NCBI GenBank assembly: GCA_947478525.1
Contig: CANJVU010000011.1
Span: 3,453 to 67,452 of the forward strand
Length of the DNA: 64,000 bases
Direction: 5' to 3'
Source of the DNA: Thiotrichales bacterium
GTDB lineage: Bacteria > Pseudomonadota > Gammaproteobacteria > Francisellales > CACEW01
Part shown: piece after piece, positions 10,174 through 14,399 of the stretch
Layout of the letters: each line of letters starts with the position of its first letter
Position numbering within the stretch: the first letter of the stretch is position 1
Position numbers and translations under genes: made by a program
The notes under the pieces: generated by a model
Databases searched by the model: none
What the model was told of the DNA's origin: nothing
The model's input: the letters and a program-made list of their open reading frames with translations, nothing else

Positions 10174-10860
10174 TTATAACTTTAGCGGATTGATTAAAAC
10201 TCTATCATCATAAACATCCGCTTTTTCATATATTTTCAAAAACATGACCAATACACTCAGAAGTGGCGTAATTAGAGCTATCACAGCCAATTCAAATAAA
10301 AAATTATGTAATGAAAGTTCCAATATTACTGAGAATTTAACTACTCCAGCATATGAACCTATAAGCACTAATGTTGCGCTTGTTATTACGGCTATACTGG
10401 ACGAACCCATGCTTCTAAGCCAAAAGAATCTTCCGCGAATCAACGCCTTCCATTTTGCGATGAGATATCCATTGATAAGGCTCGCACAAAATACAGCAAT
10501 GGTACCAGAAATTAAGCCTCTCATATAAAACCATTGCAAATTTTGATAATCGATGGGAGTTGCTATGTTTGAGGCAACGGGGAAAGAAAGTGCAAAATAA
10601 AGAAAAAGTCCAAAAATGTAATCACATAAAAGTCTGAACCATATAATTCGTTTCAGCATTTTAAACCCATAAACCTCAGCAATGCTATCGCCAATAGGAT
10701 AGCATAAAACATATACTAATGGCGATGCGGGAAGAATGAACGAAAAAATATGCACATACCGATACCCTAGTAACGTTGAAGCAATATCAGCTGTGAGGTA
10801 AAGCATGCTAATAAAAGTAAGAAGTTTATATTGAGTTTTTTCAGAATGGTTTAATTCCAC
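10174..10860 (-). CDS. VUT/YhhQ-family (DUF165) queuosine-precursor transporter-like membrane protein
   Basis: Polytopic membrane protein with a YPIGDSIAEVYG motif characteristic of YhhQ-like proteins. Confidence 0.65.
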   Translation of the reverse strand: MELNHSEKTQYKLLTFISMLYLTADIASTLLGYRYVHIFSFILPASPLVYVLCYPIGDSIAEVYGFKMLKRIIWFRLLCDYIFGLFLYFALSFPVASNIATPIDYQNLQWFYMRGLISGTIAVFCASLINGYLIAKWKALIRGRFFWLRSMGSSSIAVITSATLVLIGSYAGVVKFSVILELSLHNFLFELAVIALITPLLSVLVMFLKIYEKADVYDDRVLINPLKL

Positions 10861-11020
10861 TTTAATTGACCTATATTTCTAAAATTTGAACCTTAGTAAA
10901 ACATATTTAAAGGGGTTGTGCAATCTGAATGGTGCAATCGGAAGCTAGCTACTCTGAGTTTAATTTGTTAACATAGAAATAGATGCTATGCATATGAAAG
11001 ACTCACTTTAAGGCATTTAA

Positions 11021-11950
11021 ATGAATAAACAAAAACATCAGCAAAATATTTTTACGTTATTTACCAAGATCTTTAGACAAGAATTGGGAAGGAATAATGA
11101 ACTTCAAGTGTCGTATCGGATTATTAACTTACCTACTGAAAAAGACACACATGTTCACTTCCAAATCATTGGCAAAGGAATTGTTCTTAAAATGACTCCC
11201 GCAAAAATCATGCGCGATGAAATGCTTATGGGATTTAGCAAGGCTGATATCGCATTGATTACGCATTATGGCACCAAAGCTGAGTATCAAGCAGAGTCAA
11301 ATAAAAAACGAGGCATCTTGTCTCGAATCGTTCAGCAACTTTTTGGTGATAAACAATCCGCTTTTTTAATTCATGACGCCGAGCAAGAAAAAGTAATTGA
11401 AAAAACTGCACAGGAACTATATTTTGATCCTTCTACTAAAGAACGTTTTAGCAGTGCTGATGCATTGGTAATTGGTTACAGTGCTGCTGAGGAACGCTAT
11501 CGACAATTAGTAGCTGAAACAAAATTTAAGCCAGAATATGAGATGCTCTCGATTGGAGACGGAGCTGTATTTTATCGTCATCACGAAACACAGCATGTGG
11601 TAAATCAATCTGCTGAAACATTATTCAACACTCCCAAAGTATTCAAAAAATTTAATGCTGATGACAGGAGTCTGATTAGTTATACTGCTGCCGAAGCAAG
11701 ATATCAGAGGATTATGAAGGAAACGAAGGCACAGATTAATTTTAAACTGTGTAATACTGCTCCGGATGATCATAATTGCTGGCAGTACCAATCTCTAAGC
11801 ACTGGCGATTTACTGATGACTTCAGTTGATGCACTATTTTATGATACTAATACCTTGAAGCAATTTAGTGCTGATGACCTTAGTCTTATTGCCTTTGCAG
11901 CGGGCGAGCTTTCTAAAAAGAGACAACTGGAACTTGCGACTACGCATTAG
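11021..11950 (+). CDS. hypothetical protein built from four tandem copies of a ~60-70 aa domain shared with the small ORFs at 12811 and 13938
   Basis: Four repeats each end in a similar stretch:
- MLMGFSKADIALITHYGTKAEYQ
- ERFSSADALVIGYSAAEERYRQL
- KKFNADDRSLISYTAAEARYQRI
- KQFSADDLSLIAFAAGELSKKRQL. Confidence 0.7.
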   Translation: MNKQKHQQNIFTLFTKIFRQELGRNNELQVSYRIINLPTEKDTHVHFQIIGKGIVLKMTPAKIMRDEMLMGFSKADIALITHYGTKAEYQAESNKKRGILSRIVQQLFGDKQSAFLIHDAEQEKVIEKTAQELYFDPSTKERFSSADALVIGYSAAEERYRQLVAETKFKPEYEMLSIGDGAVFYRHHETQHVVNQSAETLFNTPKVFKKFNADDRSLISYTAAEARYQRIMKETKAQINFKLCNTAPDDHNCWQYQSLSTGDLLMTSVDALFYDTNTLKQFSADDLSLIAFAAGELSKKRQLELATTH

Positions 11951-12637
11951 TTAATAATCGGTGCGATGCTGCATCATGCGCGCAATGATAGAATCCCCTA
12001 CCCCCATTTTATGAGTTTGATAACGGGGATCTTGCGCATATAAAAACTTACCGCTGTCGCTCAACACATATTGCCGGAAAATGGCATCTGGCAATTTATT
12101 GATTTTCGCCAATACATAATCACCATCACGCGGTGAAACGTCTGGGTCGAAAATTAAAACCGATCCTTCTGGAAAGCGCCCACTCATGGCTGTACCTTGA
12201 GCGTAGATCACAAAAGCGCGCGACCCTACATTAATATCTAACGCCAGAGTTTCACCCACAAAGTTTTCGACATGTTTATCGAAATCAACGGCTTCGTGAT
12301 AGCTCAAAATAGGTAATTTGCGCAGTCCACTGTTATTGGTTGCTGGCTTGCTGGCAAGCATTTCACCTTTGCTAAACTCCAGCCAATCATATTCAACACC
12401 AAGACGCTGTGCTAATTCACGGCGACGAGCTTTCGCTGGCAGAACTAAACCATTGACCCACTTACCTGCGCCAGCATGAGACAACAAAAACATTTCGGAA
12501 ACATATTGAATACGTCCGTGGTTTTTAGGAGGGATGCCGTTATGATCTAACGCTTGATTCAAACGCGCAGCAAAAGCCAGCAGATGATCGTTATCTGCCG
12601 GTACTTTTTCAACATCGCTTTCTTCATTATGCACCAT
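11951..12637 (-). CDS. phage CI/LexA-like repressor (N-terminal HTH + C-terminal S24 peptidase-like domain)
   Basis: The C-terminal half aligns with lambda CI (FPEGSVLIFDP..., GDYVLAKI, SDSGKFLYAQDPRYQ). The dyad positions read QGTAMS and AIFRQY instead of GxSM and K. The gene is transcribed divergently from the small-ORF module. Confidence 0.85.
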   Translation of the reverse strand: MVHNEESDVEKVPADNDHLLAFAARLNQALDHNGIPPKNHGRIQYVSEMFLLSHAGAGKWVNGLVLPAKARRRELAQRLGVEYDWLEFSKGEMLASKPATNNSGLRKLPILSYHEAVDFDKHVENFVGETLALDINVGSRAFVIYAQGTAMSGRFPEGSVLIFDPDVSPRDGDYVLAKINKLPDAIFRQYVLSDSGKFLYAQDPRYQTHKMGVGDSIIARMMQHRTDY

Positions 12638-12716
12638 CTACTGACAGGCTCCCATGTTAAATTCGGGATCATTATATATAATTTCTTGGTAAAAAGCACT
12701 AAATTTCTCCAAAAAT

Positions 12717-12763
12717 AAAACCAAAATGAAACTATTGACTTTTTAAATTATTTGGTTTTAAAT
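12717..12763 (+). promoter_or_regulatory. candidate promoter plus 9-bp inverted repeat (possible operator), module copy 1
   Basis: TTGACT at 12735-12740, a 17-nt spacer, then TTAAAT at 12758-12763. AAAACCAAA at 12717-12725 and TTTGGTTTT at 12751-12759 form a perfect 9-bp inverted repeat that brackets the -35 box. Confidence 0.35.
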
Positions 12764-12810
12764 GGCATTGTTGTACCGAAACTCACTTTAACTAACACAG
12801 GGGAATGACC

Positions 12811-13047
12811 ATGACTACTTATCAATACCAACTGATCGCTGTTAACCAATCTTTATACACTGATACCAAAATCATTTTTGAAATTCGCAGCGATGCAGGG
12901 TTCACCATCAAATTGCCAGCACTGGAAGTTGCGCATAATGCGGTATTGATGGAAAACATGTCTCCTGCAGATATCAAACGTGTGATGTATTTTGCGGGTG
13001 TATTGGAAGGCACTGCGCAAGCGAAAGAAGTAGAAGTTGCTGCCTAA
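12811..13047 (+). CDS. small protein A1 (78 aa), single-domain member of the repeat family found in the 309-aa protein
   Basis: I chose the start by homology with copy 2 (AGGGGA, 7 nt, ATG). The protein differs from the 13938 paralog at 10 of 78 residues, all conservative. Confidence 0.7.
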   Translation: MTTYQYQLIAVNQSLYTDTKIIFEIRSDAGFTIKLPALEVAHNAVLMENMSPADIKRVMYFAGVLEGTAQAKEVEVAA

Positions 13048-13069
13048 TATCGCGGAGGAGAAAGCGCGC

Positions 13070-13094
13070 GAGGTGAATTTTTTAAGTTCACCTC
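13070..13094 (+). promoter_or_regulatory. conserved hairpin after ORF A1 (no T-tract)
   Basis: GAGGTGAA and TTCACCTC form an 8-bp stem. The equivalent hairpin is retained in copy 2 even though the loop sequence differs. Confidence 0.4.
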
Positions 13095-13128
13095 CCCTAC
13101 CTCTACTAACTTTAACAAGGACTAAGCC

Positions 13129-13365
13129 ATGAAAGCATCTAAACTCAAAACCACCATGACCGAACATCAAGACTTGATCGCACAAACTTTTACCATCACC
13201 CTTACCTTTGCCGATGGCCGCACCAAAAAAGGCTCACCCTTGAAATTGATGGCCAACAAAAAATTGGTGGCATCGTTACCGGAATCCTATGCTATGCGCC
13301 TTGGCTTCTTGGCAGGCGTTGAGCATGTCATCAATCAACGCAAACAGCGCAAAGATTTTAAATAA
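13129..13365 (+). CDS. small protein B (78 aa), present only in module copy 1
   Basis: It lies within the 283-nt segment (13095-13377) that is missing from copy 2. Its C-terminal part (LMANKKLVASLPESYAMRLGFLAGVEH) loosely resembles the same domain family. Confidence 0.55.
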   Translation: MKASKLKTTMTEHQDLIAQTFTITLTFADGRTKKGSPLKLMANKKLVASLPESYAMRLGFLAGVEHVINQRKQRKDFK

Positions 13366-13388
13366 TCGGAGTTCAATGGGAGTACACC

Positions 13389-13514
13389 ATGATTACTCGC
13401 AAAGCCCTTATTATCGAAGAAAACCACGACCCAGAAAGCCAACGAATTTTAATCAGCCTCGCGTATGATGGCAAAATTTTTATTGATTCTCATCGACTGG
13501 TTCCTTGCACGTAA
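13389..13514 (+). CDS. short ORF C (41 aa), conserved in-frame in both module copies; possible CsrA-like remnant
   Basis: Sequence MITRKALIIEENHDPESQRILISLAYDGKIFIDSHRLVPCT. The first ~17 codons are conserved in copy 2 (14231 onward) with an in-frame 3-nt indel. It overlaps the 3' end of the convergent HTH gene by 66 nt. Confidence 0.25.
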   Translation: MITRKALIIEENHDPESQRILISLAYDGKIFIDSHRLVPCT

Positions 13515-13775
13515 AAAAATTGTCCCGCGTGAGATTGCGCAGTTTATCGGTATCTTCTGACAGGCGTTTGGCTCTAAGGTGCCAATATGTGGCGTGGTTG
13601 ATTTGCCGGTAGCGATGCGATGAATGGTCGGCTGCGGAATATTAAGCTCACGCGCCAGATCCATCGCGCGCATTTTCTTTTCGAAGAGCAAGCGACTCAG
13701 AATTTCGTCTAAGGTACCGTGCGTTTCTTTCATCATCTCGGTGGTGTTATTCATAATGGAGACCATTGTATACAA
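13449..13775 (-). CDS. XRE/Cro-CI family HTH regulator (no S24 domain)
   Basis: MRAMDLARELNIPQPTIHRIATGKSTTPH is a canonical HTH_3 motif. The start is ambiguous, with several Met codons between 13775 and 13740. Confidence 0.65.
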   Translation of the reverse strand: MYTMVSIMNNTTEMMKETHGTLDEILSRLLFEKKMRAMDLARELNIPQPTIHRIATGKSTTPHIGTLEPNACQKIPINCAISRGTIFLRARNQSMRINKNFAIIREAD

Positions 13776-13848
13776 TATTCAATATCATTGAAGCCCCCTT
13801 TCTATCAAAAGGTTTAAGGGGTATTTAAAAATATTTTCAAAAATACTG

Positions 13849-13877
13849 TTGACACGACAAAAACTAAAATGTATATT
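13849..13877 (+). promoter_or_regulatory. candidate sigma70 promoter, module copy 2
   Basis: TTGACA at 13849-13854, a 17-nt spacer, then TATATT at 13872-13877. Confidence 0.5.
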
Positions 13878-13937
13878 TAATGCAAGTTAAGCAGAAATGC
13901 ATAACTCAAACCGAAAACTAACAACAGGGGAACGAAC

Positions 13938-14174
13938 ATGAACTCATATCAATACCAACTGATCGCGGTTAACCAATCTTTGTACTCAGATACTAAAATC
14001 ATTTTCGAAATTCGCAGCGATGCAGGTTTCACCATTAAATTACCAGCACTGGAAGTGGCGCATAATGCAATATTGATGGACAACTTGTCTCCTGCAGACA
14101 TCAAGCGTGTAATGTATTTCGCCGGCGTATTGGAAGGCGCTGCGCAAGTGAAAGACGTAGAAATTGCTGCCTAA
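13938..14174 (+). CDS. small protein A2 (78 aa), paralog of A1
   Basis: AGGGGA RBS 7 nt upstream. About 87% amino-acid identity to A1. Confidence 0.7.
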   Translation: MNSYQYQLIAVNQSLYSDTKIIFEIRSDAGFTIKLPALEVAHNAILMDNLSPADIKRVMYFAGVLEGAAQVKDVEIAA

Positions 14175-14196
14175 TATCGCGGAGGAGAAAGCGCTG

Positions 14197-14221
14197 GAGG
14201 TGATTTTCTTAGATTCACCTC
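14197..14221 (+). promoter_or_regulatory. conserved hairpin after ORF A2
   Basis: GAGGTGA and TCACCTC form a 7-bp stem, positionally equivalent to 13070-13094. Confidence 0.4.
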
Positions 14222-14322
14222 ACCGGGAGTACGCCACAATTACTCGCAAAGCGGTTATCGAAGAAAACCACGATCCAGACAGTCAACACTTTATATATCT
14301 AGGAGATTCGAGTGATTCAGAA

Positions 14323-14399
14323 TGGTCGGAGTGACAGGAATCGAACCTGCGGCCTCTGCTTCCCGAAAGCAGCGCTCTACCAAGCTGAGCTACACTCCG
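14323..14399 (-). tRNA. tRNA-Pro (anticodon CGG)
   Basis: The reverse complement reads CGGAGTGTAGCTCAGCTTGGTAGAGCGCTGCTTTCGGGAAGCAGAGGCCGCAGGTTCGATTCCTGTCACTCCGACCA. It has a 7-bp acceptor stem, a D-loop (AGCTCAGCTTGGTAGAGC), the anticodon loop TTCGGGA, a T-arm (GGTTCGATTCC) and an encoded CCA. Confidence 0.92.

Follow-up and report, generated by a model that had tools for sequence, protein, structure and literature searches.

A four-domain protein from a gammaproteobacterial genome belongs to a widespread domain family associated with Vut_1 transporters and LexA/CI-like repressors

The window analysed here is a stretch of 64,000 nucleotides from a Thiotrichales bacterium (assembly GCA_947478525.1, contig CANJVU010000011.1), and the gene in question, at positions 11021-11950 on the forward strand, encodes a protein of 309 amino acids (aa). 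We found that this 309-aa protein is an intact four-domain member of a widespread and previously undescribed domain family, the standard form of which has two domains. The genes of this family are usually located beside a gene for a helix-turn-helix (HTH)-S24 repressor and often near a gene for a divergent Vut_1 (YhhQ/QPTR) transporter. From this linkage, which is observed in gene neighbourhoods and gene fusions, we infer a mechanism: the domain protein could be a cytoplasmic adaptor of the Vut_1 transporter that acts together with the repressor, a tentative reading to which we give slightly less than an even chance.

The 309-aa protein comprises four copies of one domain

An earlier note, based on the letters of the window, had described the 309-aa protein as four tandem copies of the domain that also forms the small free-standing proteins A1 and A2, and had proposed repeat statistics, structure prediction followed by a Foldseek search, and a family profile with a genome survey as checks. 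The repeat scores, the profile searches and the AlphaFold2 models all agree with this description. The protein was cut into four units of approximately 70 aa (R1 to R4), which were compared pairwise by Smith-Waterman alignment against 500 shuffles. The repeat statistics are significant (z 5.1-13.2), with the highest similarity for R2/R3 (z 13.2) and R3/R4 (z 11.8), followed by R2/R4 (z 8.0) and R1/R4 (z 5.7). The alignment of the first repeat with A1, which had also been put forward, gives a z of 5.4, and that of A1 with B, a further small protein, a z of 5.1. For each pair compared, the observed score was equalled by only 0-1 of the 500 shuffles.

A hidden Markov model (HMM) of the domain recognises four full-length domains in the 309-aa protein, at residues 29-96, 98-168, 170-236 and 238-305; their independent E-values range from 1e-21 to 1e-23. 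A non-circular HMM was built from 266 units of other multi-domain proteins, with the 309-aa protein and all single-domain proteins excluded, and was searched against all 13,102 open reading frames (ORFs) of the window's own genome. It retrieved the 309-aa protein with an E-value of 7.7e-49, A2 and A1 with E-values of about 4e-9, and B with an E-value of 2e-4, which confirms the presence of the domain in B as well.

With regard to the structure, AlphaFold2 predicts the same order of elements in all four repeats: three strands, a short helix, another short helix and a long helix. The model of the 309-aa protein has a mean predicted local distance difference test (pLDDT) score of 79, which rises to approximately 90 inside the domains, and a predicted template modelling (pTM) score of 0.38; this low pTM suggests that the inter-domain arrangement is not fixed. 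The model of A1 (pLDDT 88, pTM 0.74) exhibits the same elements with the same spacing, and the long helix starts with S/P-x-x-D in the four repeats and in A1. The 309-aa repeats and A1 are therefore predicted to share one fold, and A1, A2 and B are homologues of the repeats. The motif read from the repeats in the earlier note corresponds to the near-invariant columns of the whole family, F-S-x-x-D and aromatic-x-A/G.

The four repeats are not equivalent. The first and second domains of 99 two-domain proteins were used to build separate profiles, named D1 and D2. R1 scores 71 bits with the D1 profile versus 18 bits with the D2 profile, whereas R2 (53 versus 17 bits), R3 (28 versus 10 bits) and R4 (19 versus 11 bits) all score higher with the D2 profile. 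Based on these scores, the 309-aa protein is best described as a D1-D2 protein in which the second domain was copied twice more. An N-terminal helix (residues 4-24) precedes repeat 1 (11105-11311, residues 29-97), which is of the D1 type, with predicted strands at residues 32-36, 45-49 and 54-58 and helices at 60-65, 67-71 and 74-96. Repeat 2 (11312-11524, residues 98-168) is of the D2 type, with strands at 101-108, 113-119 and 124-129 and helices at 130-134, 139-142 and 145-166. Repeat 3 (11525-11728, residues 169-236) and repeat 4 (11729-11947, residues 237-309, with a long helix of the FAAGE type) are the extra D2-derived copies.

The domain family is widespread and previously undescribed

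An exhaustive profile search, covering 1.84 billion cluster representatives, yielded 511 representatives (50%-identity clusters) that match the family profile at E <= 1e-3. The main architecture is a protein of approximately 170 aa with two domains in the order D1-D2, and other architectures comprise three, four, five or six domains. Single-domain proteins account for 17 of the best 150 of the 511 matches. The R4-type repeat is the one that is multiplied in the two multi-repeat relatives P0011 (364 aa, five repeats) and P0009 (430 aa, six repeats). A word-based search gave only two relatives of the 309-aa protein itself: P0002, a protein of 314 aa with 47% identity and four repeats in one-to-one register, and P0003, a protein of 241 aa with three repeats.

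The domain had not been recognised in the earlier note, and it found no match in the databases either. Searches of Pfam, NCBIfam, PHROGs and PADLOC assigned neither the 309-aa protein nor A1, B and the two-domain relatives to a family, and a sequence-profile search of the PDB with the domain gave nothing better than an E-value of 0.19. With Foldseek, no match at E <= 1e-3 was found for the models of the 309-aa protein and A1 in the PDB, or for A1 in BFVD; the best E-values were 6.8e-3 for the 309-aa model and 0.25 for A1, with a TM-score of at most 0.51. The three-stranded antiparallel sheet packed against helices resembles small strand-strand-strand-helix folds such as the chromo shadow domain, the double-stranded-RNA-binding domain and the PqqD-like peptide-recognition element, which bind proteins or nucleic acids and are frequently present as tandem copies. 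As all Foldseek matches to these folds were non-significant, none of these likenesses was adopted. For the double-stranded-RNA-binding fold, the Foldseek probability was at most 0.25 with the 309-aa model, and no such match was present among the best 50 listed for the single-domain model. In the literature searched, we found no description of the domain, nor of an accessory domain, protein partner or regulator for YhhQ/QPTR transporters.

The family was then surveyed across genomes. A family match was found in 9 of 68 genomes of the window's own order, in 73 of 206 genomes of the order that holds an "uncultured Legionella" metagenome-assembled genome (MAG), including genomes of 3-4 Mb, and in 30 of 400 genomes of an even class-wide sample (E <= 1e-4). 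All but one of these 30 carriers have a genome of at most 3.3 Mb. Among the named carriers are Legionella cherrii, L. parisiensis, L. pneumophila, L. drancourtii, L. anisa, L. bozemanae and L. sainthelensi, as well as Fluoribacter dumoffii, "Candidatus Paracoxiella cheracis", and MAGs assigned to Coxiellaceae and Legionellales. The family is unusually well represented in the window's own genome (2.1 Mb), which has about 20 family genes and about 26 domains at no fewer than eight loci. Among PLSDB plasmids, tblastn with A1 and B gave chance matches only, and the repressor of the window matched generic S24 proteins only and no Legionella plasmid. This unannotated family, with approximately 500 sequence clusters, is thus present in cultured Legionella, and its partners are clear enough to be tested. 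In addition, many genes annotated as "hypothetical", on genomic islands of Legionella as well as in Coxiellaceae-like MAGs, can now be assigned to a single family.

The domain genes are paired with repressors that lack the catalytic lysine

The 309-aa gene is followed, with no bases between the two stop codons, by a convergent gene (11951-12637, reverse strand) encoding a LexA/CI-like repressor of 228 aa with an HTH and an S24 domain (Pfam Peptidase_S24, 38 bits; PHROG 4 "transcriptional repressor", 5.8e-17). This abutment, as well as the presence of domain genes on both sides of the repressor gene, had been pointed out before and holds. The same convergent arrangement is found at the locus of the closest relative, P0002, where the repressor gene also adjoins, with an overlap of 4 nt.

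The pairing is conserved across many genomes. An HTH-S24 repressor is encoded within one to three genes of the domain gene in 43 of 48 loci from Legionellales, Coxiellaceae-like MAGs and small-genome Gammaproteobacteria, and a divergent Vut_1 gene is nearby in 30 of them. These loci form two sets. In 20 Coxiellaceae/Legionellales-like loci, found through the two-domain protein, the repressor gene is immediately upstream on the same strand, and often overlapping, in 18, and 11 of the 20 have Vut_1 nearby. The second set consists of 28 loci from Legionellales and the class sample; here, a repressor is within one to three genes in 25 loci and Vut_1 in 19, with variable gene order and orientation. 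Moreover, the similarity between domain proteins correlates with the similarity between their repressors (Spearman 0.85 over 44 non-redundant pairs), a value that was reached by none of 500 label shuffles. The domain protein and the repressor are therefore inherited as a unit, although a correlation of this kind is by itself no proof of contact.

In the repressor of the window, the aligned motifs G-x-S-M and V-K-R/K are replaced by GTAMS and FRQ, respectively, that is, by an alanine instead of the nucleophilic serine and an arginine instead of the general-base lysine, so that the Ser/Lys dyad is not present. The dyad positions were assigned by alignment to a Legionella lvh-type repressor and by reference to LexA and lambda CI. 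Among 24 aligned repressors paired with the domain family, including that of the window, the general-base lysine is replaced by arginine in 23 and by asparagine in one. The alanine in place of the serine is a feature of the window-type repressors, including those of the window's two relatives and that of contig C21, whereas the Legionella lvh-type repressor keeps both serine and lysine in the same alignment. As the catalytic lysine is replaced in the paired repressors, self-cleavage is unlikely, and repression would therefore be relieved by something other than self-cleavage. The protein encoded beside these apparently uncleavable LexA/CI-like repressors is the obvious candidate for this role.

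In Legionella, the module forms a row comprising genes for a methyltransferase (407 aa), the two-domain protein (164 aa), Vut_1 (251 aa) and a convergent repressor (213 aa), followed by a 90-aa HTH protein, an excisionase and an integrase. As judged from its sequence, this module (loci L067-L070) is mobile, since at least eight named Legionella and Fluoribacter species share it with more than 90% identity. A relaxase-like gene adjoins the module in two loci, and on these grounds the module resembles a mobilisable island of recent spread.

The domain is associated with divergent Vut_1 transporters and fused to them

The gene upstream of the 309-aa gene (10174-10860, reverse strand) is transcribed divergently from it and encodes a Vut_1 protein (YhhQ/QPTR, COG1738) of 228 aa, which matches PF02592 with 77.1 bits versus a cut-off of 27.2. 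According to the ORF coordinates, the two genes are separated by 160 bp (10861-11020), which presumably hold the promoters of both. In the intergenic regions, including this one, no operator-like repeat or consensus promoter was detected above chance.

Proteins of the YhhQ/QPTR family (COG1738, Vut_1) are queuosine-precursor transporters (Zallot 2017, PMC5372724; PMC11130926; PMC11570991). The transporter of the window and the fused proteins described below carry PF02592 above the cut-off; in contrast to canonical members, the partners of the domain family are divergent paralogs. In the window's own genome, each of the three low-scoring paralogs (70-86 bits) adjoins a domain-family gene and belongs to a trio, whereas the two high-scoring, canonical copies (135-154 bits) do neither. 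Three trios of Vut_1, domain and repressor genes are present, in the window and on contigs C9 and C21. The genome encodes a tRNA-guanine transglycosylase (TGT) and five or six Vut_1 paralogs, and no convincing QueC was found in it (best 22 bits); on these grounds, it probably depends on salvaged queuosine precursors. At C8:59585-60475, a 381-aa open frame matches Vut_1 twice, once strongly and once weakly, and may encode a canonical YhhQ-type transporter with an internal duplication.

The domain is also fused to the transporter, in seven Legionellales genomes and at either end of the transporter. In four of these genomes, Vut_1 is followed by two domains (394-409 aa), and in the other three, one domain is followed by Vut_1 (302-311 aa). 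PF02592 was confirmed by Pfam in the five fusion proteins tested, which cover both types. A word-based search with one fusion gave only four close relatives, among which Legionella rubrilucens and Legionella sp. MW5194 are named. The repressor gene adjoins the fusion gene in most cases; at one locus (L093), a methyltransferase gene, the repressor gene and the fusion gene form one co-directional row. Fusions at both ends fit a transporter that has its two termini on the same, cytoplasmic, side. Because the domain was fused independently at both termini, we suggest that it is linked directly in function, and probably physically, to the transporter on its cytoplasmic side. These natural fusions give a direct handle on an accessory domain or regulator of YhhQ/QPTR, a family that is studied for queuosine salvage.

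The same fusions could be explained if the domain were a transporter accessory only, serving as a cytoplasmic gate or as a handler of the imported compound (perhaps a 7-deazaguanine-type base) that is passed on, for example, to a methyltransferase, with the repressor merely controlling the operon. The recurrence of a class I S-adenosylmethionine (SAM)-dependent methyltransferase beside the module in Legionella, at L093 and on C9 is in line with this explanation, as are the fusions of the domain to a CMD domain and to an SBP-like ligand-binding domain, which are described below. We nevertheless consider it rather unlikely, as the commonest arrangement is the tight, often overlapping pair of a repressor gene and a domain gene, with Vut_1 more loosely associated or absent. 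Moreover, single-domain members are found at the regulatory heads of conjugative elements, far from transporter genes, and a 70-aa unit without conserved polar pocket residues is an unlikely small-molecule binder.

The fusion to an inner-membrane transporter and the tight coupling to a repressor are also not features of a secreted effector. It is therefore very unlikely that the 309-aa protein is a tandem-repeat effector sent into a eukaryotic host by a Dot/Icm type IVB system, and no eukaryote-like domain is present in it. This explanation would account for the variation of the repeat number from one to six in the family, since such variation is common among effectors, and for the restriction of the family, in the genomes searched, to small-genome Legionella-like Gammaproteobacteria; DotI/IcmL is encoded in the window's own genome.

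A putative adaptor between transporter and repressor

Based on these neighbourhoods and fusions, we propose that the domain docks on the cytoplasmic face of the Vut_1 transporter. Free-standing domain proteins would pass the state of the transporter, that is, the supply of its substrate, to the repressor, acting as co-repressor or anti-repressor, and this signalling would replace the lost RecA-type self-cleavage of the repressor. Extra domains, such as those of the 309-aa protein, would add valency, so that one protein could bind additional partners simultaneously. At the heads of conjugative elements, the single-domain genes (types A, B and C) would be offshoots that feed the same type of repressor.

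A comparable logic operates in GlnK-AmtB-TnrA of Bacillus subtilis and Mlc-PtsG of Escherichia coli, in which a cytoplasmic protein or a repressor docks on a transporter and transport sets expression. The proposed system would follow the same logic, but it exhibits no sequence or fold relation to these proteins, and the analogy is drawn from the gene neighbourhood and the fusions only. Repressor-plus-partner pairs are also known from mobile elements, such as ImmR/ImmA of ICEBs1, in which ImmA is a metalloprotease, and the phage antirepressors. Here too, a gene co-transcribed with a repressor would modulate it instead of RecA-driven self-cleavage; in contrast to ImmA, however, the domain carries no catalytic motif, and it does not resemble any known antirepressor.

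In its widest form, the proposal would be that LexA-poor, host-associated Gammaproteobacteria (Legionella and relatives) use a dedicated adaptor family to link a micronutrient transporter of the YhhQ type to CI/LexA-like repressors that cannot be cleaved. The uptake of a queuosine-precursor-like compound, and not DNA damage, would then control the transporter operon and, via the single-domain offshoots, also the activation of conjugative elements and genomic islands. We regard this extended version as distinctly unlikely in its entirety.

Several observations weigh against an adaptor role. Other partners are fused to the two-domain unit, namely a CMD (AhpD-like) domain in P0044 and P0090 and an SBP_bac_3 domain in P0085, and on account of these fusions the domain may be a general docking or oligomerisation module that is not specific for transporters. 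Vut_1 is absent from the examined stretch at some loci, for instance that of P0003, and 2 of the first 20 loci have no repressor. As both the neighbourhoods and the correlation were derived from related genomes and mobile modules, they could be explained by joint inheritance alone. Finally, no conserved surface or ligand-binding residues were found in the domain, and the role of the conserved S-x-x-D seems to be structural, as a helix cap. P0044, P0090 and P0085 are metagenome proteins, and the SBP_bac_3 ligand-binding domain of the P0085 fusion has no signal peptide.

Single-domain genes and resemblance to the lvrRABC module

The earlier note had counted at least six or seven copies of the domain, in single-copy and concatenated form, around the repressor gene. 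The count of seven stands: the four repeats, A1, B and A2 are seven intact domains within 3.3 kb, to which two truncated copies of a third type are added. A1 (80 aa, 12805-13047, forward strand) is divergent from the repressor gene and is followed on the same strand by B (78 aa, 13129-13365), a basic protein that is closer to D2 by its profile matches, and by a truncated third-type gene of 41 aa (13389-13514), in which only the strand part of the domain is left. Over a stretch of 31 aa, the latter matches the N-terminal half of the domain encoded by an intact gene for a 107-aa protein, C9:46230-46553, with 48% identity. On the reverse strand, a truncated repressor copy of the C9 type (13449-13775, 108 aa, Pfam HTH_26) retains the HTH only and has almost the same sequence as the N-terminus of the 221-aa repressor encoded at C9:44541-45206. 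A2 (78 aa, 13938-14174, forward strand) is 87% identical to A1. The ratio of nonsynonymous to synonymous substitution rates (dN/dS) between the two is 0.12, which suggests that both are, or were until recently, under purifying selection. A second third-type remnant (14164-14334, forward strand) was recognised by the DNA repeats D2/D3 and by a weak match to the 107-aa protein of C9. The accessory region ends at a tRNA-Pro(CGG) gene (14323-14399, reverse strand) identified by ARAGORN. Decayed CsrA genes were ruled out for both truncated stretches: 13389-13514 matches the third single-domain gene of C9 and not the CsrA-like protein, and 14164-14334 is a truncated third-type single-domain gene. 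The region 12638-14322 comprises two partly decayed heads of the kind found on C9 and C21.

The partial decay of this flanking module, with its truncated repressor, its truncated third-type genes and its lack of transfer genes, raises the question of whether the 309-aa gene is itself a decaying, functionless remnant of a lost mobile element. The region is also AT-rich, with a GC content of 0.36-0.38 versus approximately 0.45. However, the ORF of the 309-aa gene is intact, four repeats and a convergent abutting repressor are kept in a relative with only 47% identity, and the intact trio of Vut_1, domain protein and repressor matches the conserved unit, which makes this the most improbable of the explanations considered.

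On both C9 and C21, single-domain genes (A, B and the third type) are divergent from the repressor gene, and on C9 they are followed by a gene of the CsrA family (40 bits) and by GI-type conjugation genes. This C9 layout is that of the Legionella lvrRABC module (Wee et al. 2013, PMC3864950; Gomez-Valero et al. 2011, PMC3218107). The window shares with this module a LexA/CI-like S24 repressor (lvrR-like) that faces small genes, and the region adjoins a tRNA-Pro gene. Nevertheless, neither the multi-domain protein nor Vut_1 has a counterpart in the published module, the catalytic lysine is missing from the repressors paired with the domain family, and the copy in the window has neither a csrA-like gene (lvrC) nor transfer or type IV secretion genes, both of which are present at the C9 locus. 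Homology to LvrA and LvrB was rejected, as hhalign of the domain profile with the 303-aa and 154-aa genes of a Legionella lvh locus, which were taken as lvrA and lvrB by position, gave probabilities of only 0.7% and 0.1%, respectively. The resemblance is therefore positional only.

The position of the single-domain genes on C9 and C21, after an S24 repressor gene and, on C9, before a CsrA-family gene, is that of lvrA/lvrB (PMC3864950). They could accordingly be nucleic-acid-binding regulators of mobile elements, counterparts of LvrA/LvrB that act on DNA or, with a CsrA-like LvrC, on RNA, the transporter being passenger cargo. The charge of the units varies widely (pI 4.6 to 10.4): several are strongly basic (pI 10.3 for B; median of 8.8 for the two-domain proteins), as would be expected from this explanation, but many are acidic (pI 4.9 for A1, approximately 5 for R2 and R4). 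The best fold matches of the 309-aa protein are tandem double-stranded-RNA-binding-domain proteins; these matches are non-significant and were not recovered by the single-domain model. In view of the lack of homology to the genes at the lvrA/lvrB position (hhalign probability below 1%), of the fusions to a membrane transporter, which would be left unexplained, and of the many loci located away from element heads, we consider such a role unlikely, and we retain the adaptor reading as the preferred one.

Two further loci of the same genome were noted. The region C9:37886-52947 contains, in this order, a methyltransferase gene, Vut_1, a two-domain gene, a repressor gene, three single-domain genes, an HTH gene and a CsrA-like gene, and continues with GI-type transfer genes, including one for a TraD-like coupling protein; it represents an apparently intact conjugative-element head. 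Another ORF, of 76 aa (C11:43-273), is located upstream of the window and matches the multi-domain-only profile with an E-value of 2e-6.

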